Assembly (NCBI GenBank): GCA_964514645.1
Contig: CAZERB010000001.1
Location: 1-32,428 of the forward strand
DNA length: 32,428 nt
Source of the DNA: an uncultured Anaerolineales bacterium
Lineage (GTDB): Bacteria > Chloroflexota > Anaerolineae > UBA7937
Direction: 5' to 3'
The notes beneath the pieces are model-generated. The model was not told where the DNA came from and made no database searches. It saw only the letters and a program-made list of their open reading frames with translations. The position numbers and the translations under genes are program-made. This document shows positions 3,074 to 31,600 of this stretch, one piece after another; position 1 is the first letter of the stretch, and every line of letters begins with the position of its first letter.

Positions 3074-5371
3074 TTACACGCGTCTCAAATGGAGTTCCAC
3101 TTGGGCTTGGTCTTTCAGGGTGAAGCCCAAGCCCACCACCCCAGGAGCGACTTTGCGCACTCCACGACGTCGCCCGTTTACCCACGCGCTCACCGCTCGG
3201 TAGGGCTCTGGCACGGCGAAAAGCAACTCCCCGAACTGGCTCCCAGGCTTAACCAACTCTAAGATGAACCTCGGTTCCCTGCGGCGCCCATCCTGCCACT
3301 CCACCGCTTTTACCTCCACCCCACCCTGAGTGATATGGAAAGTGGAGGTTAGAAACTGAGGCTGGCTTGTGGCCTCCTTAAAGAGGAGAAGCACCGTCTC
3401 ATGAGGCTGGTGGCGAGAGATAGTAAGCCTCTCTTGGAACACGCCTAAATACCGCTTGGGCCAAAAATCATAGACATGATAAGGTTTAGCGGGCTTGAGC
3501 CCCATCTGGCCAAAATCGATCTCGGTTTCGACGGTCCCATCGGCCCAGTTGATGAAGGCAGCCACCATCCACCGGCCATATTCGGCCTCTATGGGGAGAG
3601 CGAAGAGAGAGGGTAATTCATTCTCGAAGAGATCGCAAGGCTTGGCACTCCCTCCATAGGGAGGGAGGATCCGCTTCAAATATTTGCGCCTCCCTTCACC
3701 GAGAGATGGTAGATCATCGCCCGAAAAAACACTCCCCCCCGCCAAACCCACTATTGAAACCAGAGTCCGCATCTCGTTCAACTTCAGGTTCGATTCTCCC
3801 CCTCGAGGGCGCAGCAGGACACAATCGGGGTCGTTCGTCCAGAGCCAGCCATGCATAAAATAGCGAGCCATAACGTTGCGCAGGGCGTTACGCACAGAGG
3901 GGGAGGATAGATCTCCCCATAGGGGCTGCCAATGAACCGCCATATCGGGCCCTATACGCATCCCATCCAAAAGCCCCACCGCCGGCCCCCAGGGAGCGCC
4001 ACACCCCAAGAGGAACTTATCGCCCACCGCCTCCCGGATGATCTCCAACCCCTGGCGGAAAGCCCGGGCCCGAGTGACCTGGGAATCGTAACGCCGCCCC
4101 TCCAGGGCCCCGGCGTAAAGGAAGTCGATCTTGAAGAGATCGTAACCCCAATCATCGCTCAAGATGCGAAACAACTCTTTCAGCCACATTTTTACCTCTG
4201 GATGGGTAAGATCCAAGGCGTATGTGGGGACCGCCCAGTGGTGCCAGGCGACGACCGGCTCATCCCTCTCATCCCGAAGCACCCAATCGGGATGCTCCTT
4301 GTAGAGGCGAGACTGGGAACTTGTGGCAAAAGGGGCTATCCACAAACCAGTTCTCCGAGCAGAGGCTCTTATCTCCTCCCCTACCCGCCTCATCCCCTGA
4401 GGGAACTTCCCCTCGTCGGTAAATAGCCAATCCCCTATCTCTTTTTGGTGTCCATCGTCGATGAGGAAATAGTCAAGAGGCAGATCGCCCGCTCCTTTGG
4501 CGTTAGAAAGAACCTCGTGGGCACCGTTCTCACCGTAGAAATAGTACCAAGAACACCAACCGGTAGGTATCTTCTTCGCCTTTCGGGCCCCCATATTCTC
4601 CCCCAAAGCCTGGGCATATCCTTCCAAAAGAGAGATGGGGTCGCGCCCCCCCCTTACCAGAAGCTCCTCCGAGGAGATCCGCTCCCCGGGATAGAGGCGC
4701 ACCCCATCGGCATAGGCGGTGGCAGCCAGACGCTGAAACCGGAGGCCCTTCACCTCCAGTCGTATCTCGGCCATCTGCTCCCTGGCGGTGGTGAAGCCGA
4801 GGAGAAGCGAAAGTCTGGAGGTGCGGTTGTGGAGGACGGTCATCCAATGGCTCACTAGAGTCTTGGGGGCAAGGGGTAAAGGGTAAGGCTCATGCTGGAG
4901 GCGATACTCCTCCGTCCCAGGAGTGACATAGTGACCGTTATCCAGGTGACGGGCGAAACTAGGCGACCAGGACTGCCAACCGTTTTGGTAGAAAGACCAA
5001 CCCTTTGGAGAACCGAGATGCAGCCTCCCTTGATCGCTAGTTAGGAGAAAGGGGGAAAGTTCAAACACTTCCAGAGGCCTTTGACCCACATTGATGAGGC
5101 GCAATTGTAAATGGACGCCCTTCTTTACCGAGGCCTGCCAGGTGAGTTCCAGATCCTCGTTCTTGGTGCTAAGACTAACCCTATCCTCTCCCACCCCGTA
5201 GGCCACATCCCCCTGGAGGCCGAGGGTTTTCTCCTTTCCCTGCACGCGGTATTTTGCCTCCGCGGTGACTCCCCTGATGAAAAGGCCAAGGTGACGGATC
5301 TCCATTCTGCCCCGGGAGGGTTCCACTCTAAGAACATGTCCTACGTCGATCTTTCCTCCCACAGCCATCAT
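3074..5371 (-). CDS. Glycoside hydrolase family 36 alpha-galactosidase (Thermotoga GalA-like subgroup)
   Basis: GWCSWYYFYG, YFLIDDGHQKEIGDW, LFKIDFLYAG (nucleophile region), LLGCGAPWGPAVGLLDGMRIGPD and WTNDPDCVLLR. From memory these align closely with T. maritima GalA (FKIDFLFAG, ILGCGSPLLPAVG..DGMRIGPD, LNDPDC). AAGGAGGG SD lies before ATGATG. Confidence 0.85.
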   Translation of the reverse strand: MMAVGGKIDVGHVLRVEPSRGRMEIRHLGLFIRGVTAEAKYRVQGKEKTLGLQGDVAYGVGEDRVSLSTKNEDLELTWQASVKKGVHLQLRLINVGQRPLEVFELSPFLLTSDQGRLHLGSPKGWSFYQNGWQSWSPSFARHLDNGHYVTPGTEEYRLQHEPYPLPLAPKTLVSHWMTVLHNRTSRLSLLLGFTTAREQMAEIRLEVKGLRFQRLAATAYADGVRLYPGERISSEELLVRGGRDPISLLEGYAQALGENMGARKAKKIPTGWCSWYYFYGENGAHEVLSNAKGAGDLPLDYFLIDDGHQKEIGDWLFTDEGKFPQGMRRVGEEIRASARRTGLWIAPFATSSQSRLYKEHPDWVLRDERDEPVVAWHHWAVPTYALDLTHPEVKMWLKELFRILSDDWGYDLFKIDFLYAGALEGRRYDSQVTRARAFRQGLEIIREAVGDKFLLGCGAPWGPAVGLLDGMRIGPDMAVHWQPLWGDLSSPSVRNALRNVMARYFMHGWLWTNDPDCVLLRPRGGESNLKLNEMRTLVSIVGLAGGSVFSGDDLPSLGEGRRKYLKRILPPYGGSAKPCDLFENELPSLFALPIEAEYGRWMVAAFINWADGTVETEIDFGQMGLKPAKPYHVYDFWPKRYLGVFQERLTISRHQPHETVLLLFKEATSQPQFLTSTFHITQGGVEVKAVEWQDGRRREPRFILELVKPGSQFGELLFAVPEPYRAVSAWVNGRRRGVRKVAPGVVGLGFTLKDQAQVELHLRRV

Positions 5372-5449
5372 CCCTCCTTACGCGCACAAGCGCCCGGCAG
5401 GGGTAAGCGACCCCCGATGTGAGAAGAAGGAGAACGGCCTCCGGCGACG

Positions 5450-7183
5450 CTAGATATATCCCATATAAGTAAGAACGAAGATAAAGAGACGGAGTATGCC
5501 AGCGGTGAAAGCGAAGACGAAGAAAGCGCCAAAGAGCGACCGACTTCTGGTCCACCTGAGGTAAAAAGCCATCACCCCTAAGCCCAGGGTCGCCAAAAGT
5601 ATAGGGAAGAGCCGACCGGTGAAGATCGGCGCTAGCTGGGGCATAGATATAGCCAAGAAGGGAAGGAGACCTCGTCCACTGGGGGTGATCAACATCATAG
5701 CCACAAGTTGCATAAGCATAGCCACAACCAGGGCCACCCAGGCTCCCAAGGTCGTCAACTCGCCTTCTCCTGTCAAGAGGTAGAAAATCAAAAGCCAAAA
5801 CAGGGGAAGAACAAGCCAGGCTATGAGCACCGGGGTAAAACAGACGACTAAAAGGAGAGCCATTATTAGATCGCCACCTCTATCTACCACATCGGCTAAG
5901 GTGACCTTGTTCAGCACCTCTTTCACCTGCGGCGAGGTGCTGGCGTACAAGACCTGGTATTCTTCAAACCCTGCGGTGTCGATCCAAGCCAGATGGAGAG
6001 CCAGCCCCGGGTCGGCTACGATATGGGGGGTCAAGGAAGCCATTTTTGTGGCGGTGACGATCTGGTACCCTTTCAATTGGCCTTGGGAGAAGACGAGCAT
6101 AGCGATCTGGAGATGTTCTCCCAGTCTAGTGGAAATGTTCATGCTAAGGGCCACCGGCAACTCCGACCTCTGACCATCTACCACCCAAGGCCGGCTCAAA
6201 AAAGTGGAGACCTCTGCTTTCTGAGAGGCCAAGAGATGGTAAGCATACTCCCCTGCATAGGGGTCGTATCGTGGCCTCTCTGTGGGGGGTAGCCGCAACT
6301 CCATCACCACGCTTTCAGAGGGCCTTCCCAGGGGAAAAGTGGCGTAGAAGGTATCGCCGCCCGCCGCCTGTCCTCTCTCTTCTATAGACCAAAAGATGTA
6401 GCCATTCTTAAGATCGAGCCCCAGAACTGGACCGACCATGATCTGTCCTCCTCGGAGGACTACCTCGGCGATCCCTGTAACCTCCCCCAAGACCCTCCTC
6501 TCTGGATCGAAGGTAGCATAGTATATCTGGCGGATGCCATAGGCGGGCTCTTCAAACCAAGAAAGGTGGAAAGTTCCCTCCTGGTCCAATTGCAAAGTGG
6601 GGGCTATCCCTTGAGAGGCGATAAGGGCATTGGGCGAAGCCACCAAACTCTCAGGATCGATAGTCAGGCTATATACGCCAGGGCTCGCATAGGCGGCTTG
6701 AGACCAGAAGAGTTCGATCTGCCCTTGGGCACTAAATCCTGAAGCCACATAACCCACCTCCATCCCCGGCAAGGAGAGGAGAAAAGGGTCGGAGATGATC
6801 TCCCCTGAGGAGTTTAACTGTACGTAGTAGAGGCCCTGACCTTCCTCCTTACTGGCGATCCAAAAGAGGTGGAGCCTCCCCAGGGGGTCTAAGAGGAACC
6901 CCGGCTTCTGAGAGGATCGAGTAGGCAAATCGAGGCTCTTATCCGCTACAACCTGCCCCTTCTCATCTAACTTGGCCCAGCGGAGAAGATGCTCCCCATC
7001 CACCCAGGTCAGATAAACTACACCCTCGCCAGCCTGGATGGCTACCGGGTTGTTGAGGCGGCTTATCCCTACCGGCTGCCCCTTGCTCCAATCGAGGGAG
7101 GCTCGAGGCGTGGTCCGAGGTCCAGCACACCCCCCTAAAACGACCCCCAGGAGAAGCAATAAGGTCAAAACCCTTTCCTTCAT
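5450..7183 (-). CDS. Lipoprotein with an extracytoplasmic beta-propeller-like repeat domain fused to a C-terminal ~6-TM membrane domain; function unknown
   Basis: The ORF is open to 7252, but ATG 7183 is preceded by GGAGAGG and gives MKERVLTLLLLLGVVLGGCAG (signal plus LGGC lipobox). At least six repeats of hxhxW-x8-12-hYY/hY-x-h-D/N-xxG. The last ~170 aa are strongly hydrophobic (about 6 TM). Confidence 0.75.
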   Translation of the reverse strand: MKERVLTLLLLLGVVLGGCAGPRTTPRASLDWSKGQPVGISRLNNPVAIQAGEGVVYLTWVDGEHLLRWAKLDEKGQVVADKSLDLPTRSSQKPGFLLDPLGRLHLFWIASKEEGQGLYYVQLNSSGEIISDPFLLSLPGMEVGYVASGFSAQGQIELFWSQAAYASPGVYSLTIDPESLVASPNALIASQGIAPTLQLDQEGTFHLSWFEEPAYGIRQIYYATFDPERRVLGEVTGIAEVVLRGGQIMVGPVLGLDLKNGYIFWSIEERGQAAGGDTFYATFPLGRPSESVVMELRLPPTERPRYDPYAGEYAYHLLASQKAEVSTFLSRPWVVDGQRSELPVALSMNISTRLGEHLQIAMLVFSQGQLKGYQIVTATKMASLTPHIVADPGLALHLAWIDTAGFEEYQVLYASTSPQVKEVLNKVTLADVVDRGGDLIMALLLVVCFTPVLIAWLVLPLFWLLIFYLLTGEGELTTLGAWVALVVAMLMQLVAMMLITPSGRGLLPFLAISMPQLAPIFTGRLFPILLATLGLGVMAFYLRWTRSRSLFGAFFVFAFTAGILRLFIFVLTYMGYI

Positions 7184-7282
7184 ACCCAAGCCTCTCCAAG
7201 AAACGAGAGGCGGTCCCCATCGCCCGCCTCTCACTTTAAGACCATCGATCAAGGATCCCCAACCGCATCGCCCAAGTCCCGA

Positions 7283-13807: not shown

Positions 13808-14386
13808 CTACAACGAAGATAGATCATAGGCTTCCCTGGGCACTGCCTTTTCCTCAGCCAGTTTCCCTTTAAGGATCTTCCGAGCATGGTGGAGTCGAGA
13901 CTTCACCGTCCCCACGGGGCATTCCAGGATGTAGGCTATCTCCGTCAGACTAAAGCCCTGGAGATAGAAGAGCATCACCACCAGGCGGTGATGTATGTTT
14001 AGAGAATTAATCGCCTCGTGCAGCCTCCGATGCAACTCCTTCCTCTCATAAGCATGCTCTGGCGAAAGTTGGGGGGCCGCCACCAGCCGATCTATCATCT
14101 CCTCCACAGAGACAAACCAAGGACGCCGCTTCACCACCCAGTTGTAGCTCAGGTTCACCACTATGCGGTGCAACCAAGGCCCCAAAGGGGCCGAACAATC
14201 GACCCGAGAAAGAGAACGATAGGCTTTAAGGAAACAATCCTGCAACATCTCCTCGGCAGCGCCTTGGTCATCGGTTATAGCCAGGGCGGTGCGGAAAAGC
14301 CTCTTCTTGTATCTGTCGTAAAGGGCTACAACCGCTTCCGAATCCCCTTCTCGGATTCTAGAAACAAGTTCGGCGTCCCTGTTCAT
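13808..14386 (-). CDS. ECF-type RNA polymerase sigma-70 family factor
   Basis: Region 2 (AEEMLQDCFLKAYRSL, WLHRIVVNLSYNW) and region 4 HTH (LQGFSLTEIAYILECPVGTVKSRLHHARKIL). Length 192 aa. Confidence 0.9.
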   Translation of the reverse strand: MNRDAELVSRIREGDSEAVVALYDRYKKRLFRTALAITDDQGAAEEMLQDCFLKAYRSLSRVDCSAPLGPWLHRIVVNLSYNWVVKRRPWFVSVEEMIDRLVAAPQLSPEHAYERKELHRRLHEAINSLNIHHRLVVMLFYLQGFSLTEIAYILECPVGTVKSRLHHARKILKGKLAEEKAVPREAYDLSSL

Positions 14387-14460
14387 CCCTCACCCGCTTT
14401 GGACGCTTCCCTCTCCACATATACACAATATGGAGAGAATAAAGGTTCATTTTTAACATT

Positions 14461-15933
14461 TTAAGAGGAAAGGCCACCGTTGTCAAATCTGCCTTTCCAC
14501 CTCAGGTTGGGCCTGCGGGCGGCGGTTACCTCATCGAGGTGGCTGAGGGGCGTCTTATGAGGTGCCGAAAGCACGTTATCTGGCTCCTCCCTCGCCTCCC
14601 GAGCGATCTCCTTCATGGCCGCTAGAAAGCCCTCCAACGTCTCAAGACTCTCTGTCTCCGTGGGCTCGATCATGAGGGCTTCCTCCACGATCAAGGGGAA
14701 ATAGATAGTTGGGGGGTGGAAGCCAAAATCGATGAGTCGCTTAGCGATATCTAGAGTATGGACGCCGATTTCCTTCTGCCATTTGCCGGAGAATACACAT
14801 TCGTGGAGACAAGGTCTATCGTAGGGCAGATAATAGTAGCCCTTCAGTTGGCTCAGAAGGTAATTGGCGTTGAGCACCGCGTGTTCACTTACCTCCCGCA
14901 AGCCATCACCACCCAACGATCGGATATAGGCGTAGGCCTTCACCATCACCCCAAAGTTACCATAGAAGGAACCCACCTTCCCGATGGATAAAGGACGGTC
15001 ATAATCCAGGTAGTATCTCGTTCCCTCGCTCGTCTCTGTTCGGGCCACCAGGGGGAGGGGCAGGAAGGGAGCCAGATCCTCACTCACCGCCGTGGCCCCG
15101 GCCCCTGGGCCTCCCCCACCATGCGGCGTGCCGAAGGTCTTATGCAGGTTGTAATGGAGGATATCCATCCCCAGTTCTCCTGGCTTGGCGATGCCTAAGA
15201 GGGCGTTCATATTGGCCCCATCGCAGTAGATGAGGGCTCCCAGGCCATGGATGATCTCCGCCACCTCCAAGATCCGCTCCTCGAAGAGGCCCAAGGTGTT
15301 GGGGTTGGTGAGCATCAAAGCCGCCACCGACTCATCGGCTCTCTCTCGTAAGATATCGGCATCTATATTCCCTCGCCCATCGGAGGGGATAGTCATCACC
15401 TGGTAGCCACACATAGCCGCCGTAGCCGGATTGGTGCCGTGGGCCGAGTCTGGGACCAAGACCACCTTCCGCCCTCCATCATGGCGGTTTTGGTGGTAGG
15501 CCCGCACCATAAGCATCCCCGTCAACTCCCCATGGGCCCCCGCCGCCGGTTGGAGGCTTACTGCCGGCAGCCCCGCTATCTCCGCTAGATACCCTTGCAA
15601 CTCATACATCAATTGCAAAGCCCCTTGCACTAACCCCTCATCCTGATAGGGATGGATATGGGCAAATCCAGGTAGGCGGGCCATCTCCTCGTTGACCTTG
15701 GGGTTATATTTCATGGTGCAAGAGCCCAGGGGGTAGAAGCCCGTGTCTACTGAGAAGTTGAGGTGGGAGAGACGGGTGAAATGTCTAATCAAATCCCTCT
15801 CACTCACCTCGGGAAGAGAAAGGTCATCCCGAACCCGACCTTCCGGTAGCGATACTTGGGGGACATCGCACGCCGGCAAAGAAACCCCGGTTCTTCCGGG
15901 CGAACTGAGTTCGAAGAGCAGAGGCTCATCCAT
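14461..15933 (-). CDS. gcvPB: Glycine dehydrogenase (decarboxylating) subunit 2 (P-protein C-terminal subunit)
   Basis: MDEPLLFELSSPGRTGVSLP start, GSCTMKYNP, and the PLP-Lys region NLHKTFGTPHGGGGPG. Confidence 0.95.
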   Translation of the reverse strand: MDEPLLFELSSPGRTGVSLPACDVPQVSLPEGRVRDDLSLPEVSERDLIRHFTRLSHLNFSVDTGFYPLGSCTMKYNPKVNEEMARLPGFAHIHPYQDEGLVQGALQLMYELQGYLAEIAGLPAVSLQPAAGAHGELTGMLMVRAYHQNRHDGGRKVVLVPDSAHGTNPATAAMCGYQVMTIPSDGRGNIDADILRERADESVAALMLTNPNTLGLFEERILEVAEIIHGLGALIYCDGANMNALLGIAKPGELGMDILHYNLHKTFGTPHGGGGPGAGATAVSEDLAPFLPLPLVARTETSEGTRYYLDYDRPLSIGKVGSFYGNFGVMVKAYAYIRSLGGDGLREVSEHAVLNANYLLSQLKGYYYLPYDRPCLHECVFSGKWQKEIGVHTLDIAKRLIDFGFHPPTIYFPLIVEEALMIEPTETESLETLEGFLAAMKEIAREAREEPDNVLSAPHKTPLSHLDEVTAARRPNLRWKGRFDNGGLSS

Positions 15934-15934
15934 A

Positions 15935-17092
15935 CTACAACCCTCTTAGCACCTTCTGAGCGGAAACCAACCCCGCACCCAACTCAAACCTATAGCCGCA
16001 AGACAAAAGCGCCCCTTCGATGGCTCCTACCGTAGCCAATATGTGGCTACCGTTGACCCCACCCATATGTCCCACTCTGAAATAACGTTCCTTGATTTGA
16101 GGGTGCAGGCCACCAGCCACGATAACGCCCCGACCCCCTATTTCTCCTAGAAGTTCCTCGCCTACCCCCTCCGGGTAGTAGATAGCGCTCATGGTGTGGG
16201 CTGCCACCTCTAAAGCGGGCACCTGCTTCAACCCCAAAGCGGTCATGGCCGCCTTGAAGGCCTCGCTTATGAGCCTATGGCGTCGAAATCGGGCCTCCAT
16301 CCCTTCTTTTAGGATCTCATCCAGGCTCTCCCCAAGGGCGTATATGAGGTTTACTGGCGGGGTACCGAAATAACCCACTTTCCGGGCTTCATACGCCTCC
16401 ATGACGGGGAGCCAATTGGCGAGATCGGCATAATAGTTGGCCACAGGGGTGCGGCGCTTCCGGAAAAGGTCTAAGGCCCGGGGAGTAACCATCAGGATAG
16501 CCAAGCCCGGTGGGACGCCCAAAGCCTTCTGAGAGGCGGTGAGACAGATATCGATCCCCCACTTTTCCTGGCGGAACTCCTGGCCCCCAACGGCGCAGAC
16601 GCCATCAACCACGCTCAAGGCACCATAGCGGTGGGCCAGACTTCCCAGAGAGGCCACATCAACCAGCACCCCGGTGGAGGTATCGACATGAGTAGCCAGG
16701 AGCAACTTATATTTTGCGCTCGTAAGAGCCCTCTCCACCTCTTCCAAAGAGGGAACATCTCCCAGTTTGGCTCCCACCTGGGTCACCCGTGCGCCGTACC
16801 GCTCACAGATGGAGGCGAAGCGATGGCTAAAGTAGCCGGTATCGACTAGTAATACCCAATCCTCAGGCTCGATGAGGTTAGCCGCCGCCATCTCCATAGC
16901 CAGGGTCCCCGAGCCAGCCACCACGAAGGGCTGCCCTTCTTCGGTCAGGAAAACCTCCCTGAGCCTCTCCAAAGAGTGGCCGAAAACCTCGATGAAGTCG
17001 GGCGAGATATGGCTTGGGGTCCTGATAGCCATAGCCTGGAGCACCGCTGGCGCGAACTCCACAGGGCCGGGGATCATCAAGAGTTCGTTCAT
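15935..17092 (-). CDS. Class-V aminotransferase, alanine-glyoxylate / serine-pyruvate (AGXT/SgaA-like)
   Basis: MNELLMIPGPVEFAPAVLQAM, SGTLAMEMAAANL and the PLP-lysine motif LTASQKALGVPPG. The true start ATG 17092 overlaps the gcvPA stop (ATGA). The ORF-track extension to 17230 would overlap gcvPA and is rejected. Confidence 0.85.
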   Translation of the reverse strand: MNELLMIPGPVEFAPAVLQAMAIRTPSHISPDFIEVFGHSLERLREVFLTEEGQPFVVAGSGTLAMEMAAANLIEPEDWVLLVDTGYFSHRFASICERYGARVTQVGAKLGDVPSLEEVERALTSAKYKLLLATHVDTSTGVLVDVASLGSLAHRYGALSVVDGVCAVGGQEFRQEKWGIDICLTASQKALGVPPGLAILMVTPRALDLFRKRRTPVANYYADLANWLPVMEAYEARKVGYFGTPPVNLIYALGESLDEILKEGMEARFRRHRLISEAFKAAMTALGLKQVPALEVAAHTMSAIYYPEGVGEELLGEIGGRGVIVAGGLHPQIKERYFRVGHMGGVNGSHILATVGAIEGALLSCGYRFELGAGLVSAQKVLRGL

Positions 17093-18426
17093 CTTATCTC
17101 TCCCAGTACCTCGACTAAAGCGTCGATCTCCTCCTTGGGGTTCATCTCCGTGACGCAAAAGAGCAACCCATCGGCCAATTCCGGGTAATCGCGCCCCAAG
17201 TCGTAGCCACCGACGATACCCCTCTCCCATAATCTACCATTCACCTGCCGTGGGGAAAGAGGTGTCTTCACCACGAACTCCTTAAAAAAGTCGCCGAAGG
17301 GGAGTGCGAACCCAGGAAGGCCCTCTATTTGACGAGCCGCGTAATGGGCCTTATGGAAGGAGAGTTCCGCCACCTGGCGCAGCCCCTGTTTCCCCATGGC
17401 CGCCAGATAGACCGTGGCCGCTAGAGCAACCAGGGCCTCATTAGAGCAGATATTAGAAGTAGCCTTCTCCCGGCGGATATGCTGCTCCCGGGCTTGGAGG
17501 GTGAGGACAAACCCCCGGCGCCCCTGGCTATCAGTAGTCATCCCCACCAAACGTCCGGGAAGTTGGCGCATATATTCCTGGCGGCAAGCCAAGAAGCCAA
17601 GATAGGGCCCTCCGAAACTCAAAGGGTTCCCTAAGGATTGGCCTTCTCCCACTACTAGATCGGCTCCTTCCTCCCCGGGAGGGCGAAAGAGCCCCAGAGC
17701 GATGGGGTCCACGCAAACCACGAGGAGAGCGCCAACCCTACGGGCTAATTCGCTGGCCGAAGACAGATTCTCCAGGCAACCGAAGAAGTTGGGATGCTGG
17801 ACGATGAGACAAGCGGAAGCGGAGGATAGGCTCTCCCTTGCAGAGGCCAGGTCCACCCGGCCATGGCGGTCGTACCCCACCTCCCTTATGGGCAGCCCCA
17901 GGCCTTGAGTATAGGTTCGAACCACCTGGCGGTAGGCTGGATGGACATTTCGGGCTACAACTAACTCCTCGCGGCGGGTGATACGTGCGGCCATGAGGGC
18001 TGCCTCCGCCAGGGCTGAAGCCCCATCGTAGAGGGAGGCGTTAGTCACGTCCATGCCCGTTAGGTCACAGATCATACTCTGATACTCGTAGATGGCGGTC
18101 AAGGTCCCTTGGCTAGCCTCCGGTTGATATGGGGTATAGGCGGTATAGAACTCCCCCCGCCGTAGAACATGATCCACCACCGCAGGGATGAAATGACGGT
18201 AAGCCCCAGCACCCAAGAAGCAAGGGTGGTGGTCTAGATCGGCGTTCTCTTCTGCCAACCCTTGGAGGAGTCGCACCACCTCCATCTCCGAGAGACCAGG
18301 CGGGAGATGAAGAGAGGGGTAGCGACTTTCTTCGGGTACAACTTCAAAGAGCCTATCTGTAGAATCGACGCCTATGGCCTCGAGCATCCTTTGGCGATCG
18401 GCCTCGGTATGGGGAACGTAGCCCAT
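17089..18426 (-). CDS. gcvPA: Glycine dehydrogenase (decarboxylating) subunit 1 (P-protein N-terminal subunit)
   Basis: MGYVPHTEADRQRMLEAIGV, FLGAGAYRHFIPAVVDH and EFYTAYTPYQPEASQGTL. Confidence 0.95.
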   Translation of the reverse strand: MGYVPHTEADRQRMLEAIGVDSTDRLFEVVPEESRYPSLHLPPGLSEMEVVRLLQGLAEENADLDHHPCFLGAGAYRHFIPAVVDHVLRRGEFYTAYTPYQPEASQGTLTAIYEYQSMICDLTGMDVTNASLYDGASALAEAALMAARITRREELVVARNVHPAYRQVVRTYTQGLGLPIREVGYDRHGRVDLASARESLSSASACLIVQHPNFFGCLENLSSASELARRVGALLVVCVDPIALGLFRPPGEEGADLVVGEGQSLGNPLSFGGPYLGFLACRQEYMRQLPGRLVGMTTDSQGRRGFVLTLQAREQHIRREKATSNICSNEALVALAATVYLAAMGKQGLRQVAELSFHKAHYAARQIEGLPGFALPFGDFFKEFVVKTPLSPRQVNGRLWERGIVGGYDLGRDYPELADGLLFCVTEMNPKEEIDALVEVLGEIR

Positions 18427-18429
18427 CTC

Positions 18430-18708
18430 TTACTCCTTGCAGATCCTCCGAACCTCGAAGGTCACCCAAGCGTGATCTGGACAGGTGAAAGTCGTACTAT
18501 CTGGATCCTTCGCCTCACCATAGGTCACTAGATCTGCGCCCAGTCGCATGGCATGGATAACCGGATACATGGCACAAAAAGCCTCCCCACATAGCCCCAA
18601 GGGCGTCCCATATTCGAACTCGAATCTATCGCCCACCTTATGACCAGCCCGGCAACCGGGCTTCGCTTCCTTCACACTGACGACGAAACCCCATTTCTCC
18701 TTGTCCAT
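18430..18708 (-). CDS. Small Cys-rich protein resembling the uncharacterised ~90-aa family I recall as TIGR04076
   Basis: 92 aa with PGCRAGHKVGDRFEF, GLCGEAFCAMYP and FTCPDHAWVTFEVRRI. It starts 9 nt after the gcvH stop and ends 3 nt before the gcvPA start. Confidence 0.7.
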   Translation of the reverse strand: MDKEKWGFVVSVKEAKPGCRAGHKVGDRFEFEYGTPLGLCGEAFCAMYPVIHAMRLGADLVTYGEAKDPDSTTFTCPDHAWVTFEVRRICKE

Positions 18709-18717
18709 CTTATCCTC

Positions 18718-19101
18718 CTACCCGAGCCCTTCCAGGTACCCCTCGTACTCCTCGGCGGTCAAGAGGTTCGCAAGTTCGGAGGTATCTGAAGGCTTGATTT
18801 TCATCATCCAGCCCTTGCCATAGGGGTCCTCGTTGACGAACTGTGGGTGGTCACTCAACTCCCCGTTCACCTCCAACACCTCTCCGCTGAGAGGCGCATA
18901 GAGGTCAGAGGCCGCTTTCACCGACTCCACCACCCCAAAAGGTTCAAACTGGGTCAAGATCTCCCCGGGAGGTGGCAACTCCACATAGACTATATCGCCC
19001 AATTGGCCTTGGGCATAATCGGTGATCCCTACAGTAGCGAGTCTCCCCTCGAGCCTCACCCACTCGTGTTCTTTACTATATCTGCAATCCCGCGGCTTCA
19101 T
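18718..19101 (-). CDS. gcvH: Glycine cleavage system H protein (lipoyl carrier)
   Basis: YSKEHEWVRLEG..ATVGITDYAQGQLGDIVYVELP and lipoyl-lysine motif VESVKAASDLYAPLSGEV. Confidence 0.95.
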   Translation of the reverse strand: MKPRDCRYSKEHEWVRLEGRLATVGITDYAQGQLGDIVYVELPPPGEILTQFEPFGVVESVKAASDLYAPLSGEVLEVNGELSDHPQFVNEDPYGKGWMMKIKPSDTSELANLLTAEEYEGYLEGLG

Positions 19102-19183
19102 ACCTGCTCCCTTCTCTGTGAAAGGACACTGTCGCTTCTAGCCCATAAGACGAGGAGGCCGATGATCTTTCAACCTCTCCTCC

Positions 19184-19310
19184 AAACTCCCGGCGGGCAA
19201 CTCTCCCCTGGGGGAGGCGAACGGTATCCACCCGCAACCCTACCAGTCGACCCTCATATATCCCCTCACTGGCGATGGTCACCTCTTTCCCCAAGCGCCT
19301 CTCCGACTTA
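19184..19310 (-). pseudogene. Relic of the N-terminus of a NudF-type ADP-ribose pyrophosphatase (NUDIX) gene
   Basis: Translation LKSERRLGKEVTIASEGIYEGRLVGLRVDTVRLPQGRVARREF matches the B. subtilis NudF N-terminus (MKSLEEKTIAKEQIFSGKVIDLYVEDVELPNGKASKREIV, from memory). There is no ATG/GTG at the expected start (CTT). Similarity is lost after RREF, no NUDIX box follows, and the frame runs into gcvH. Confidence 0.55.
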
Positions 19311-19838
19311 AGGGATGACCAGGGTCTGCCCTATGTAAATCGTGTTCACATCTGGCAGGTTGTTGGCCACCGCGATCGCTTCAGGCGTAGTATTGAAACG
19401 GCTGGCGATTGAGTAGAGGGTATCCCCATATTGCACCACATATACCTGGCCAGCGACCGGCGTCACCTCCCCAGCCTCAGGGATAACGAGTTCCTGCCCC
19501 ACATAGATGAGGTAGGGATAGGTAAGCCCATTGGCGGCAGCAATGGCCTCCACGGTGACCCCGTTAGCCTGAGCGATGGAGAAGAGGGTATCTCCAAAGG
19601 AGACGATATGGACCGTCACTTGTGGTGTGGCGGTGGGTGAAGGGGTAGGAGTTGCCGCTGGCGTGGCTGTAGGGGTGGGAGAGACAAGTGGTGGAGTCTC
19701 CGTCGCTAGTGGAGCAGTGGTAGGGGTACTCACCGGCTCGGTAGCCTGGGGGAGGATAATCTGTGGCTTGGGCCGCTGACAGCCCATAAAAGTGAAGACC
19801 AAACAGAGCACGACCAAAATCACAACAGCCTTTTTCAT
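19308..19838 (-). CDS. Secreted/lipoprotein with a Pro/Thr-rich linker and two LysM peptidoglycan-binding domains
   Basis: MKKAVVILVVLCLVFTFMGCQ signal. TPTATPAATPTPSPTATP linker. Two LysM repeats (HIVSFGDTLFSIAQANGVTVEAIAAANGL..IYVGQELVIP; YVVQYGDTLYSIASRFNTTPEAIAVANNL..IYIGQTLVIP). Confidence 0.9.
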   Translation of the reverse strand: MKKAVVILVVLCLVFTFMGCQRPKPQIILPQATEPVSTPTTAPLATETPPLVSPTPTATPAATPTPSPTATPQVTVHIVSFGDTLFSIAQANGVTVEAIAAANGLTYPYLIYVGQELVIPEAGEVTPVAGQVYVVQYGDTLYSIASRFNTTPEAIAVANNLPDVNTIYIGQTLVIP

Positions 19839-19908: not shown

Positions 19909-20460
19909 TTAGACAGCACAGACACCTTTCCTAGATGCGGCGTCGTCAGAATAGAGTTCACTTTCCGCCATAACCTTTGCGAACGCTCGGTACGCCTCTT
20001 CCCCATAAAGGACGAAGACCACCTCCTCTAAGGAACTCTCTCCAGCCAGGCGCTTTTGCACCTCTCGAATCATCACTTCAGCAGCCTTCGCATAGGGGAA
20101 GCGCCCCACCCCCGTACCCAGGGCGGGAAAGGCTATGCTCTTCAGGCCCAGTTCCTCGGCTCGGAGGAGGCTGTTTTTGGTCGCAGTGCGGATCTTCTCC
20201 TCATCGGTGACCAGATCGGGCCCCATAACCGCGGCGTGGATCACGTACTTACAAGGTAACTTCCCCGCTCCGGTGACCACCGCCTCCCCCACAGGGATAG
20301 GCCCCTTCTTCACCACCTCTTCCTCTATCTCCCTACCACCAGCCCGCCTGATCGCTCCGGCCACCCCACCTCCCATCCAGAGGGAACTGTTGGCCGCATT
20401 GACGATCGCTTCTGCCTTCTCACGAGTGATATCCCCTTGACGGAGGGTGATTCTAGCCAT
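19909..20460 (-). CDS. Macro-domain protein (ADP-ribose / O-acetyl-ADP-ribose binding or deacetylase, Af1521/YmdB-like)
   Basis: ITLRQGDITREKAEAIVNAANSSLWMGGGVAGAIRRAGG, YVIHAAV and IAFPALGTGVGRFP. Confidence 0.9.
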   Translation of the reverse strand: MARITLRQGDITREKAEAIVNAANSSLWMGGGVAGAIRRAGGREIEEEVVKKGPIPVGEAVVTGAGKLPCKYVIHAAVMGPDLVTDEEKIRTATKNSLLRAEELGLKSIAFPALGTGVGRFPYAKAAEVMIREVQKRLAGESSLEEVVFVLYGEEAYRAFAKVMAESELYSDDAASRKGVCAV

Positions 20461-20462
20461 CC

Positions 20463-22352
20463 CTACCTACTCTTCCCCTCCATATCGATGAGAACTCGGG
20501 CCACAGCGTCGATGGCCACTCTCTGCTTGCGGTAGAGGTCCGACTCGCTCATGGCCAAACGCTGGGCGATTTCCCTCATCCGCCAACCGCGGATGAACTT
20601 CATCTCCAAGATATTATAGAGTACCCACCCTCTGGCGGTGAGGCTCCTTTCCTCCTCTGGAGGCTTCAGGGCCTCGATAGCCCCTCGCAGGACCGCACGG
20701 AGAGCCTCAGTGGGAACATATCCGTTCTCTGCCAGGGCCCTCTGCACTATCCCCATCTTGAGGAGAGGGCTCTCTAATAGATTAGGGCCTCCCCAATAGT
20801 GAGCAAGAGCCTCTTTCACCACCTTATTGAAATCGGAAGCGTAGATGGGGCTCTCCTCCGGCGGAAAGACGGCGGAACCAACATAGCGGGGAGTGCTTCG
20901 CCAGCGTTGGATCGACTGGATCTCCGGCGCGATCTGGCTTAGTACCGCAAAGACCCCTTGCTGCAACTGCCGGTCTTCCAAGGCCAACTCCGCTTGGTGA
21001 ACCAGCATCCGCACCGTCTCCTCTTCCCTCTCCGTCAACTCCTCCTGCCTGGCCTCCACACCCAGTACCCCTAGTGTACCCTCCCGCGACTTCGTACGCA
21101 AGGGAAGGAGCCAGAAGCCCCCCTTATCTATAAAGCCCTGGCTTTCTCCTCCCTCAAGGGGCAAAGCGAGCAAACCATTTGGATCCTCCGACTCCAAGAA
21201 CGCATCGACACTCCTCCGAGAACCACAGAACGCCTCCAAATGGAGGCCATCTTCCCCGGGTGTGACTATGAAACCGGTACCAACACGCAAAAGATCGCAG
21301 AGAGCGGTAAGGATATTTTGCAAGAGTTCTTGCAGGTCGGTGGTGGTAAGGAGCCGATCCTCCAACTCCCGTATCCGAGCCACCTCTGCCCTATCCCGGC
21401 GGTAGGCCAGAAGATCGATAAGCGGCCTGGCGGCACTGATAGCGACCTGCAGGAGGACGATACCCAGCACCGTAGCGAAGATGAGGACCGTATCTCGAGG
21501 AAGGCCCAGGATGCTCTCCACCCGGGGTATCACCAGCATCAAGATGAGAAGGCAACTTCCCACCAAAGGGCCCCGGAGGAGGTAGTTTATTAGACTCCGC
21601 TTCACCACCCGGTCGGGCATCAGAACCCCATGATAGGCCACACTGTATCCCATCACCACGGTCATGATTGCGATACCCGCGCTCCCTACCAAGGATAAGA
21701 AGAGGATAAAGGTGGGAGAGAAGCGAGCAGGGAGGCTAGCCAAAAGAAGGTAAGGAAAAGCGCCCAAGGCGGGAGCGACGAAGGAGATGGTCAAGTAGGT
21801 CATCCGCCGTCGGGAAGCCGGGGTGAGGGTCCGGTGGCGGGCTCGAAGGGTGTTCAGAACCCCCCAACCGGTCACCAGGAAAAAGTAGAAAGCGAAGGCC
21901 CAGAAGAGAGGCCCAGCCCTGAAGTAGGTGACCCAAAGGGTATGCACACCATCCCGCACCACTAGAGGGGTTAAGATGGTGAGGGAGAAGAAAAGGGCCC
22001 CCAAAAGGTAACTGAAGATGACAAAACCCCGCCGCAGACGAGAGAAGGAGTTTGTGGTTCGAAGCAGCGCATCGGAGAAATGGAGGTAGGCGACGGGGAT
22101 GAAGGCTATCCCCAACCACTGAAACTTCAGCCAGAAGAACTTGGCAGAGGCGGTGCTCACGTTTAGGAGTATAACATCGGCAGCGTGGACGATAGTGACA
22201 AAGGCCAAAAGGGAAGAGAAAGAGCGGGCTACCGTATTGCGAAGGTTGTGAGTGAGGATATAGACCAGGAGTGAGAAGGCGAGTATGACATTGATAGAGG
22301 AGAGGATCAGGTTGCCGAAAGCCAAGACCCTCTCCAGCGTTAATTGCTCCAT
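20463..22352 (-). CDS. Polytopic membrane protein (about 9 TM, HisKA_7TM-like) fused to a GAF-like domain and a C-terminal sigma-70 region-4-like HTH
   Basis: The N-terminal 300 aa are almost entirely hydrophobic helices. The middle region TTDLQELLQNILTALCDLLRVGTGFIV...GTLGVLGVEA is GAF-like. The C-terminus YNILEMKFIRGWRMREIAQRLAMSESDLYRKQRVAIDAVARVL is r4/LuxR-like. No HisKA/HATPase motifs. Its ATG overlaps the cdsA stop (TGATG). Confidence 0.8.
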   Translation of the reverse strand: MEQLTLERVLAFGNLILSSINVILAFSLLVYILTHNLRNTVARSFSSLLAFVTIVHAADVILLNVSTASAKFFWLKFQWLGIAFIPVAYLHFSDALLRTTNSFSRLRRGFVIFSYLLGALFFSLTILTPLVVRDGVHTLWVTYFRAGPLFWAFAFYFFLVTGWGVLNTLRARHRTLTPASRRRMTYLTISFVAPALGAFPYLLLASLPARFSPTFILFLSLVGSAGIAIMTVVMGYSVAYHGVLMPDRVVKRSLINYLLRGPLVGSCLLILMLVIPRVESILGLPRDTVLIFATVLGIVLLQVAISAARPLIDLLAYRRDRAEVARIRELEDRLLTTTDLQELLQNILTALCDLLRVGTGFIVTPGEDGLHLEAFCGSRRSVDAFLESEDPNGLLALPLEGGESQGFIDKGGFWLLPLRTKSREGTLGVLGVEARQEELTEREEETVRMLVHQAELALEDRQLQQGVFAVLSQIAPEIQSIQRWRSTPRYVGSAVFPPEESPIYASDFNKVVKEALAHYWGGPNLLESPLLKMGIVQRALAENGYVPTEALRAVLRGAIEALKPPEEERSLTARGWVLYNILEMKFIRGWRMREIAQRLAMSESDLYRKQRVAIDAVARVLIDMEGKSR

Positions 22353-29991: not shown

Positions 29992-30627
29992 CTAGTAGTT
30001 CTTGACGACCAGGGGGAGATATACCTTCGAGCCTTTGAAAGTGAAACTCAGGTCGTCGAAGAAGACAGGGGTCTCGGGATTGGGATTCGCGATATGCACA
30101 ACACACTTTATACGAGCAATGGTAGCGGCAGGGGGCGCTTGTACACCATCACTACCGTTGTATGGGATGCGACGCTCCTGATAACCGGGCTCGTCATCAT
30201 AGACTTTCTGAGAATCGACTGGGGGAGGTATCTTTCCCAAAGAGTCCCGCCATTCGATGCTTAGCATAGCCCAGTAGTCTTCGATAGGACTATCGTTATA
30301 GTTATAAACCCAGCCAGACAGCCTATAACGGAAGCCCCCTATCACTGGCACGTCCTGATAGATATACATTTCACCTCCCTCCCCGACGGTCAGATTCAAG
30401 GAAGCGGCCCATTCCCCTGAGTGTACAGGGTATGGATTCGTTACGGTGATGAAATCGGTGGTCTCGTGATCGATATGCTGCCAATGCACAGTCCCTTCTT
30501 CGAAGCCCGGATTCTGGAGGAGGTTTGAACCGCCAGAAGCCCGCCCTGGTGATGGTGAAAGCAAAGCAGCAAGGAGAAGAAAGCAGACCCAGACAATGAG
30601 AAAAGCAACGAGTGTGCGTTTTGTCAT
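29992..30627 (-). CDS. Secreted protein with a carbohydrate-binding-module-like (CBM4/9, galactose-binding-like) jelly-roll
   Basis: Signal MTKRTLVAFLIVWVCFLLLAALL. SNLLQNPGFEEGTVHWQ..., HSGEWAASL, YQDVPVIGGFRYRLSGWVY and VFFDDLSFTF are typical of CBM4/9-like modules. Confidence 0.7.
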   Translation of the reverse strand: MTKRTLVAFLIVWVCFLLLAALLSPSPGRASGGSNLLQNPGFEEGTVHWQHIDHETTDFITVTNPYPVHSGEWAASLNLTVGEGGEMYIYQDVPVIGGFRYRLSGWVYNYNDSPIEDYWAMLSIEWRDSLGKIPPPVDSQKVYDDEPGYQERRIPYNGSDGVQAPPAATIARIKCVVHIANPNPETPVFFDDLSFTFKGSKVYLPLVVKNY

Positions 30628-30808: not shown

Positions 30809-31600
30809 CTACTCTTTGCTTATCTTTATATAGTCGATCTCCAGCCATTGTCGGTGGGGCACCGCTAACAATCCCGTCTCTAACCCTCCAGTAGGGGTCA
30901 TGGAGGCCGAGTTATTGTCCATCCAAGCCACGAAACCCAAAGGGAGCCTAGGAGGGTTGGCCACCCGATAGACCTCCCTCCCATCTACCTGGAAGAGGGC
31001 TGCCTGCCGCCGCCAATGGATAAAGTAGGTATGCCACTCCCTCATATCTACCTCCAGGAGCCTGTCCCCCATGCTCAGAGCACGGTAGGCCAACCCTAGG
31101 AATACCTTGTTAGTGAAGGGCATCCTTGTGACCAGATCGACCAGACCCATAAGCGGCCCCATCCCTTTTCCTCCATTGAGCATCGCTGCCTTCCAGCCAT
31201 TTCCAGGCTGACCGGGGGTCAGAGAGATATCGGAGGGAGGAGAGGCGTAGAAGAACCATACCCAGTTGGGGGGCACCCTTATCCCCCCTTCCCAGTCGTA
31301 GGGGGCGTTCCAAAAACCGAAGCCCGCGGTTCCTAAAACTTCCCCCGCGGAGTGGGAGAAGCGGGCTCTTACTTCCATAGTCAAGGGGGGAGTCCAGGGG
31401 AAGTTCTCCCGCGCATGATGGCGATGATCGTTGATCTCCGCGTCTGAGAGTTCTCCGACTCTGGCCCTCTCCAAGGAGAAGAGCACCGTCTCAGGCGCGC
31501 TCTCTATCTCCCCCTGGCCCACAGCGAACCGCACCCAATATGGCGAGATACCGCCCTCAAAACGGTCAATAACCCTCTCTTGCGAGGCCATAGCGCTCAT
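30809..31600 (-). CDS. Hypothetical cytoplasmic protein, possibly concanavalin-A-like/jelly-roll fold
   Basis: 263-aa ORF without a signal peptide. W/F/G-rich beta-type composition (GTAGFGFWNAPYDW, WVWFFYASPP, FVAWMDNNS, WLEIDYIKISKE). No motif I can assign with confidence. ATG 31591 is an alternative start. Confidence 0.55.
   Translation of the reverse strand: MSAMASQERVIDRFEGGISPYWVRFAVGQGEIESAPETVLFSLERARVGELSDAEINDHRHHARENFPWTPPLTMEVRARFSHSAGEVLGTAGFGFWNAPYDWEGGIRVPPNWVWFFYASPPSDISLTPGQPGNGWKAAMLNGGKGMGPLMGLVDLVTRMPFTNKVFLGLAYRALSMGDRLLEVDMREWHTYFIHWRRQAALFQVDGREVYRVANPPRLPLGFVAWMDNNSASMTPTGGLETGLLAVPHRQWLEIDYIKISKE

Follow-up and report, generated by a model that had tools for sequence, protein, structure and literature searches.

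The glycine cleavage system and the locus under study

The glycine cleavage system, a central module that is highly conserved, has its canonical bacterial form in the gcvT-gcvH-gcvPA-gcvPB operon with a two-subunit P protein, of which locus L069 is an example (related loci are designated here by L and a number). The dihydrolipoyl dehydrogenase of the system (L protein) is often encoded away from the other glycine cleavage genes, and the system is reversible, as are the aminotransferases of the AGXT family. It is likewise established biochemistry that glycine decarboxylase can be coupled, in the photorespiratory manner, to a serine:glyoxylate or alanine:glyoxylate aminotransferase. The locus described here comes from an uncultured Anaerolineales bacterium (Chloroflexota) and lies on a contig of 32,428 bp, which is referred to below, in its complete length, as the window. 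It is a variant of the known glycine cleavage system that is common in its lineage, and it consists of gcvH, a gene for a small cysteine protein of the TIGR04076 family, gcvPA, a gene for a class V aminotransferase, and gcvPB. A preliminary description of the same DNA had stressed a remodelled module that joins glyoxylate/serine transamination directly to glycine decarboxylation; the main interest of the locus is rather the reciprocal retention of gcvT and of the TIGR04076 gene among close relatives.

The H, PA and PB proteins of the window are orthologous to those of the canonical operon and pass the corresponding equivalog models, and the order and orientation of their genes are alike. In contrast, the window carries the aminotransferase gene between gcvPA and gcvPB, which overlap in the canonical example, as well as the TIGR04076 gene between gcvH and gcvPA, and it has neither gcvT nor a glycine riboswitch. 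The photorespiratory-type coupling comprises the same two steps, the conversion of glyoxylate into glycine by an AGXT-family enzyme followed by decarboxylation by the P and H proteins, whereas the window holds a single predicted operon of a non-phototrophic member of the Chloroflexota, with predicted aminotransferase substrates. The five genes, in the direction of reading, are as follows.

18718..19101, minus strand: gcvH, glycine cleavage H protein, 127 aa (TIGR00527, 164 bits against a cut-off of 116; PF01597, 155 bits)
18430..18708, minus strand: TIGR04076-family small cysteine protein, 92 aa (TIGR04076, 52.6 bits against a cut-off of 33)
17089..18426, minus strand: gcvPA, glycine dehydrogenase (aminomethyl-transferring) subunit 1, 445 aa (NF001696, 644 bits against a cut-off of 364; PF02347)
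15935..17092, minus strand: AGXT-family class V aminotransferase, 385 aa (PF00266, 94.9 bits against a cut-off of 21.5)
14461..15933, minus strand: gcvPB, glycine dehydrogenase subunit 2, 490 aa (NF003346, 744 bits against a cut-off of 441; PF21478, PF02347)

The junctions between these genes can be read directly in the sequence. The TAG stop codon of gcvH is followed by 9 nucleotides (nt), GAGGATAAG, and the ATG of the TIGR04076 gene, whose TAA is separated by the 3 nt GAG from the ATG of gcvPA; the gcvPA stop and the aminotransferase start overlap in ATGA (-4 nt), and a single T (1 nt) lies between the TAG of the aminotransferase gene and the ATG of gcvPB. All relatives share the aminotransferase start placed here at 17092, and in them the gene is called with 385 aa. 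The five minus-strand open reading frames (ORFs) and the junctions of 9, 3, -4 (ATGA) and 1 nt given in the preliminary description proved exact in every case, and its view of a tightly packed, co-oriented unit is supported, no promoter- or terminator-like signals above chance having been found inside the five-gene unit. The locus encodes an H protein with a lipoyl-lysine, in the motif VESVKAASD of the GcvH translation, and a two-subunit P protein (PA and PB) dependent on pyridoxal 5'-phosphate (PLP); the translations also show the PLP-lysine motifs NLHKTF in GcvPB and SQKAL in the aminotransferase.

Reciprocal retention of gcvT and the TIGR04076 gene

The order gcvH-TIGR04076-gcvPA-aminotransferase-gcvPB, followed by a gene for an extracytoplasmic function (ECF) sigma factor, was found in the window and in L001-L007, L010, L037, L084 and L091-L096. 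It occurs in at least eight distinct close relatives from JGI, ENA and Logan and among GTDB metagenome-assembled genomes (MAGs) named Anaerolineales; the near-identical loci, with 73-94% protein identity, belong to MAGs named Anaerolineales, Anaerolineae or Chloroflexi, and more copies are present on JGI, ENA and Logan contigs. A tblastn search with GcvT from E. coli and from Chloroflexota found no GcvT homologue anywhere in the 32,428 bases of the window, nor any in L002, L004 and L010, while it detects gcvT in L008, L057, L023, L025, L027 and L038. The absence of gcvT noted in the preliminary description stands for this contig, which is all that it covers, and does not stand as a genome-wide statement.

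The gcvT-bearing close relatives are L008 (UBA7937), with its independent assembly L099 (99.96% identical), L057 (UBA3082), and the JGI contig L098, which is 91.6% identical to L057. L008, L057 and L098 are about 90% identical to the window in the part from gcvPA through the aminotransferase gene and gcvPB to the ECF sigma gene, and they differ from it exactly at the 5' part. In L008/L099, gcvH is followed by a TIGR04076 gene with a 128-bp internal deletion, an intact gcvT, a fusion between a 5' fragment of a second gcvH and the 3' end of a TIGR04076 gene, and gcvPA, this gcvH fragment carrying stop codons. In L057/L098, the order is LysM gene, TIGR04076 pseudogene, gcvT, gcvH, a short TIGR04076 remnant and gcvPA, and the upstream TIGR04076 copy has a stop codon and frameshifts and no longer has all the conserved residues (a His is replaced by Tyr and a Cys by Ser). 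The in-locus gcvT of these sister arrangements is intact (TIGR00528, 419 bits), so that, with flanking genes as in the window, they combine an intact gcvT with TIGR04076 pseudogenes, the reverse of the window. The contrast is seen at L008:7214-8654, at L057:3512-3726 and 5285-5380, and at L098:1809-2014 and 3599-3627, as against 18430-18708 in the window, and intact TIGR04076 genes without gcvT are found in the window, L002, L004, L010, L037, L084 and L092-L096. Among genomes that are about 90% identical, every TIGR04076 copy is pseudogenised where gcvT is in the locus, and the gene is intact and under selection where gcvT is absent. This swap is a natural experiment that makes the function of an uncharacterised family testable, and it raises the question of whether P and H proteins are useful without an operon-encoded T protein.

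The segment comprising the 3' part of TIGR04076, gcvT and the 5' part of gcvH is collinear between L008 and L057 (87% identity), and the downstream TIGR04076 remnant has a 1-bp deletion common to L008 and L098, while the upstream copy was killed by different lesions in the L008 and L057/L098 lineages. The simplest common ancestor of the gcvT-bearing forms is gcvH-TIGR04076-gcvT-gcvH-TIGR04076-gcvPA, with a direct repeat around gcvT. If the two repeat copies recombined, gcvT would be deleted and the gcvH-TIGR04076-gcvPA order of the window would result; conversely, single-crossover integration of a gcvT-bearing fragment into the layout of the window would create the repeat. In a neighbour-joining (NJ) tree of the aminotransferase and gcvPB, L057 and then L008 branch outside the gcvT-less group (bootstrap 92% and 60%), which weakly favours a loss of gcvT in the clade of the window. 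The absence of gcvT together with the presence of TIGR04076 is confined to one genus-level clade, whose nearest relatives keep an in-locus gcvT, and these comparisons indicate that the layout without gcvT and with TIGR04076 is recent and derived in that clade.

Selection within the gcvT-less clade was measured as the ratio of nonsynonymous to synonymous substitution rates (dN/dS) among five members, with a mean dS across genes of 0.23-0.33. The ratio was 0.18 for gcvH, 0.195 for the TIGR04076 gene, 0.13 for gcvPA, 0.17 for the aminotransferase gene and 0.14 for gcvPB, indicating purifying selection on all five. Decay of the operon was rejected on these values: ratios of 0.13-0.20 mean that the operon kept its function once gcvT was gone from it, and that TIGR04076 is a genuine gene there.

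A collection of 5.8 billion proteins holds only two clusters of GcvT at least 65% identical to that of L008, and both come from gcvT-bearing arrangements, while over 50 proteins fall into the TIGR04076 clusters of the gcvT-less clade; the clade therefore appears to have no L008-type gcvT elsewhere. Two candidates for a gcvT of the clade were rejected. Cluster P0082, the most abundant candidate, belongs to the canonical gcvT-gcvH-gcvPA-gcvPB operon of an unrelated organism, and P0011, the closest outgroup GcvT (64% identity), lies on a 65%-GC contig in the order gcvT-MazG-GNAT-gcvPA.

The region concerned in this 65%-GC relative, L100:91-2359, carries gcvT, a MazG-like pyrophosphohydrolase gene, a GNAT acetyltransferase gene and a gcvPA 66-70% identical to that of the window, with no gcvH between them; this 5' variant again involves a nucleotide pyrophosphohydrolase. 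The GcvT of L008 and L057 shares 55-58% identity with GcvT from Firmicutes, against about 50% with the Ardenticatenales-type GcvT of L025. A horizontal origin of this gcvT is not claimed, the other operon proteins being likewise just 54-69% identical to those of Ardenticatenales.

An old aminotransferase between gcvPA and gcvPB

The aminotransferase has the fold and the PLP-lysine of AGXT-type class V enzymes, and its closest characterised relatives are glyoxylate, serine and alanine aminotransferases. Its best solved relatives are a Sulfolobus serine-pyruvate aminotransferase (3ZRP, 2e-73) and the yeast alanine-glyoxylate aminotransferase (2BKW, 3e-72), and a further one is 1VJO (1e-55). No substrate-level NCBIfam equivalog was reached, the scores being 236 bits against a cut-off of 650 for BhcA, 168 against 361 for PhnW, and 175 against 600 for pyridoxamine-pyruvate transaminase.

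A scan for the aminotransferase in one genome per GTDB species gave 60 loci, which were annotated by tblastn with the window proteins and GcvT. In four distant Chloroflexota, namely L023 (Ardenticatenaceae), L027 (Ardenticatenales), and L025 and L038 (both labelled Chloroflexia), with 54-69% protein identity to the window, the gene occupies the same slot between gcvPA and gcvPB, with an ECF sigma gene downstream. These loci are unlike the window in that they keep gcvT, directly upstream of gcvH in L023, L025 and L038 and about 5 kb upstream in L027, in that none of the four has a TIGR04076 gene, and in that their genes are separated by gaps of tens to several hundred nt, with no overlaps; the LysM gene lies upstream in three of them (L025, L027 and L038). 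The remaining homologues, with 28-63% identity to the aminotransferase, are found in further Chloroflexota, in Bacteroidota, Acidobacteriota and Myxococcota, and in additional phyla, and they are not beside gcv genes.

Because the same slot is used in distant Chloroflexota, the aminotransferase insert is old, conserved and typical of the lineage. The conserved embedding between the P-subunit genes makes a functional link between transamination and glycine decarboxylation plausible. The link drawn in the preliminary description is to that extent supported, and its age speaks against a local remodelling. An AGXT-type insert in more than one Chloroflexota lineage suggests that uncultured Anaerolineae, which are abundant, have a glyoxylate-to-glycine-to-C1 route dedicated to this conversion.

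In the preliminary description, the missing gcvT, the two inserted genes and the altered upstream region were three breaks with the usual layout that together suggested a remodelled module. The synteny comparison that it had proposed separates them, since their ages differ widely: the aminotransferase slot is old, and the gcvT-less state with a TIGR04076 gene belongs to one genus-level clade. By its own account, the preliminary description would be contradicted by a gene order both common and already described in the lineage. The first half of this applies, the layout being lineage-typical, and literature searches found no paper describing the gcvPA-aminotransferase-gcvPB layout.

The TIGR04076 protein

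TIGR04076 is a family of uncharacterised small cysteine proteins, some of them with repeats, for which literature searches returned two incidental mentions only. A HMMER search of 1.84 billion representatives gave 234 TIGR04076 clusters at E<=1e-3, including multi-repeat and fused forms. The invariant positions in an alignment of 61 members are C19, G22, H23, C40, C76, P77 and D78, and the window protein both matches the family model and has the conserved cysteine positions. This pattern suggests a Cys3His metal or redox site, and the protein is probably a metal- or thiol-based accessory protein of Cys3His type. An AlphaFold2 model gives a confident alpha/beta structure (pLDDT 87.8, pTM 0.80), for which Foldseek found no fold match at E<=1e-3 in PDB or BFVD; phmmer against PDB sequences gave chance-level matches only (E>=0.045), to alphavirus macro domains.

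Members from outside the clade stand in other contexts. The closest of them (63-68% identity) follow a gene for an HAD hydrolase and face an M17 aminopeptidase gene. In Dehalococcoidales, the TIGR04076 gene begins 9-21 nt after a gene for a 676-aa protein with Fer4 and CCG domains (L085:2949-5267; L088:2961-5267), which resembles HdrD, TfrB, GlpC and GlcF, all under their cut-offs, and one further member lies between genes for an IclR regulator and a peptide transporter. These neighbourhoods are inconsistent with one another, and the gcv association is therefore specific to the clade of the window. The HAD hydrolase beside the closest outgroup members has a weak similarity to phosphoglycolate phosphatase, a glycolate theme that may be coincidence.

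Proposed function and alternative explanations

We consider it reasonably likely that the locus encodes a glycine decarboxylase core, formed by the H protein and the two-subunit P protein, with an old embedded AGXT-family aminotransferase and with the T and L proteins encoded elsewhere, the gcvT-less layout being recent. The aminotransferase would have occupied the slot between gcvPA and gcvPB since before the clade split from its Ardenticatenales-like relatives, and it may interconvert glyoxylate and glycine with serine, alanine or another amino donor, or exchange serine with hydroxypyruvate. Glycine would then be decarboxylated by the P and H proteins, and the cycle would be completed by T protein and dihydrolipoyl dehydrogenase from genes at other sites, yielding methylene-tetrahydrofolate (methylene-THF), NH3 and NADH. 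The TIGR04076 protein may act as an accessory at or near the lipoyl arm of the H protein. As to the L protein, no pyridine-nucleotide disulfide oxidoreductase was found among most window ORFs of at least 120 aa, which were scanned for it; two ABC ATPase ORFs of the window were identified via relatives. The P protein is not known to have a role when the T protein is lacking, and given its strong conservation here, the most probable situation is that the genome carries gcvT at another site. If gcvT is simply elsewhere, the locus is an ordinary lineage-specific operon variant.

Several observations weigh against this proposal. The co-transcription of the H and P genes with the aminotransferase gene is a prediction, and the substrates assigned to the aminotransferase would follow from family membership alone, with no equivalog model reached. 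In L002, L004 and L010, gcvT was not found by tblastn within ±10 kb of the operon, any gcvT elsewhere in the genomes of the clade would be a divergent copy, judging from the protein clusters, and the polarity of the gcvT change, loss or regain, is weakly resolved. In addition, an NJ tree of the aminotransferases (L008-L067), whose deep branches carry no bootstrap values, splits the gcv-embedded enzymes into two groups, with non-gcv homologues, including those of Bacteroidota, between them. As the two groups are not sisters, a single ancient embedding rests on the shared flanking synteny and not on the aminotransferase tree. The same tree hints at a relocation or transfer of the aminotransferase gene.

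Among the alternatives, the system might run mainly in reverse, as a glycine synthase within a reductive glycine or serine route, with the aminotransferase draining glycine or serine to glyoxylate or hydroxypyruvate instead of supplying glycine for cleavage. The established reversibility of both enzyme systems would permit this, and the usual sign of glycine-induced catabolic control is gone with the riboswitch. Nevertheless, the window holds no genes for formate-THF ligase, FolD, serine hydroxymethyltransferase or serine deaminase and no sign of direction, and the T protein, which is missing from the locus, would be needed even more strictly in reverse, so that we regard this explanation as unlikely.

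Another explanation is that gcvT was lost without any substitute, the P and H proteins and the aminotransferase being kept to carry out part of the reaction, for example glycine-CO2 exchange or a slow non-enzymatic release of formaldehyde and NH3 from the aminomethyl-H protein, or the H protein being kept for lipoyl relay while the rest decays. It would fit both the absence of gcvT from all examined contigs of the clade and a neighbourhood so prone to deletion that a NUDIX gene was deleted there in at least five different ways. The strong constraint on the 935 aa of the P protein (dN/dS 0.13-0.14) and on the aminotransferase (0.17), among lineages whose divergence reaches a dS of about 0.25-0.33, argues against decay or a marginal function, and we regard this explanation as very unlikely.

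The least probable of these explanations is a T-protein-independent glycine decarboxylase, in which gcvT is truly lost and the TIGR04076 protein takes over or bypasses the T step, either by discharging or processing the aminomethyl-lipoyl H protein or by re-oxidising or reducing its lipoyl arm via the conserved Cys/His site. In that case a first function could be assigned to the TIGR04076 family, and a T-less variant of the glycine cleavage system would be defined. The reciprocal pattern is what it would predict, with the gene intact and selected without gcvT and a pseudogene with it, and with lesions in L008 that are independent of those in L057/L098; yet this anticorrelation comes from two clades and few independent events, and the pseudogenes may have arisen as a by-product of the rearrangement by which gcvT came to lie in the locus. 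The position of the TIGR04076 gene between gcvH and gcvPA, with junctions of 9 and 3 nt, and the adjacency of other members to an HdrD/GlcF-like Fe-S CCG-domain oxidoreductase speak for this explanation, while a plausible folate site is missing in the 92-aa protein, and the closest outside relatives (63-68% identity), like other members, occur in unrelated contexts. An L008-type gcvT was not found for the clade in the 5.8-billion-protein collection, although a divergent gcvT may exist elsewhere in the genome.

The upstream region and neighbouring genes

Three features border the five-gene unit, as follows.

13808..14386, minus strand: ECF sigma factor gene, directly 3' of gcvPB (PF04542, PF08281)
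19101..19294, minus strand: remnant of an ADP-ribose pyrophosphatase-like (NUDIX) gene (located by tblastn, the query being the intact L084 protein of 172 aa)
19308..19838, minus strand: LysM-domain lipoprotein-like gene, 5' border of the variable region (PF01476, 117 bits)

The LysM gene is a conserved upstream neighbour by synteny among relatives, and the gap of 200 nt between it and gcvH in the window holds the remains of the NUDIX gene. The decayed NudF gene reported upstream in the preliminary description is real: residues 1-36 are kept at 19294-19187 and residues 150-172 at 19166-19101, with the Nudix box between them deleted, and the 3' end of the remnant overlaps the gcvH start. The remnant ORF has no Pfam or NCBIfam match and no intact Nudix box or domain, and the gene is a pseudogene remnant. 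An intact 172-aa NUDIX protein (PF00293, 62 bits), whose top NCBIfam match is NudE, under the cut-off, is encoded between LysM and gcvH in L084 (7093-7611) and L010 (7456-7986), where the gene overlaps the gcvH start. Other relatives keep residues 1-25 and 111-172 (L004), 1-24 and 143-172 (L037), 94-172 (L093), 120-165 (L008) or none (L057), and in L002 the gene is split by an insertion of about 1 kb bearing a 292-aa ORF without a Pfam match. As different pieces are missing in different relatives, the gene was lost repeatedly and independently, and the at least five ways of internal deletion mark a local deletion hotspot.

The preliminary description was also right that no recognisable glycine riboswitch lies upstream. 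No Rfam family reached its gathering score anywhere in the window, and a search of 18900-19500 at E<=10 gave no glycine riboswitch, only two chance-level matches to unrelated families. Its reading of the NUDIX remnant as standing in place of a riboswitch gives way to that of a leftover of a neighbouring gene repeatedly deleted in the clade. Given a macro-domain gene two genes further upstream, the NUDIX protein is more likely a partner of the macro-domain protein in ADP-ribose metabolism than a member of the gcv unit. The macro-domain gene (19909-20460 in the window) is conserved in all relatives, and the NUDIX and macro-domain proteins could form an ADP-ribose processing pair.

The ECF sigma gene is a syntenic neighbour in all relatives, including distant ones, and lies outside the metabolic module. 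At the 3' end of gcvPB there is a near-consensus sigma-70-like promoter on the minus strand (14486-14458), with 11 of 12 consensus matches. The site at 14458-14486 consists of TTGACA, 17 nt and TAAAAT, lies within the final gcvPB codons, and is 5' of the ECF sigma gene; this site notwithstanding, the promoter count across the region overall is at chance level. ORFs of 600, 263 and 211 aa without a Pfam match lie elsewhere in the window, at 5450-7252, 30809-31600 and 29992-30627, respectively. Positions 20463-22352, upstream of the macro-domain gene, encode a 629-aa protein with a seven-transmembrane (7TM) N-terminal region of histidine-kinase type and a GAF domain, in which a kinase domain was not detected, and this 7TM/GAF protein is conserved in all relatives.

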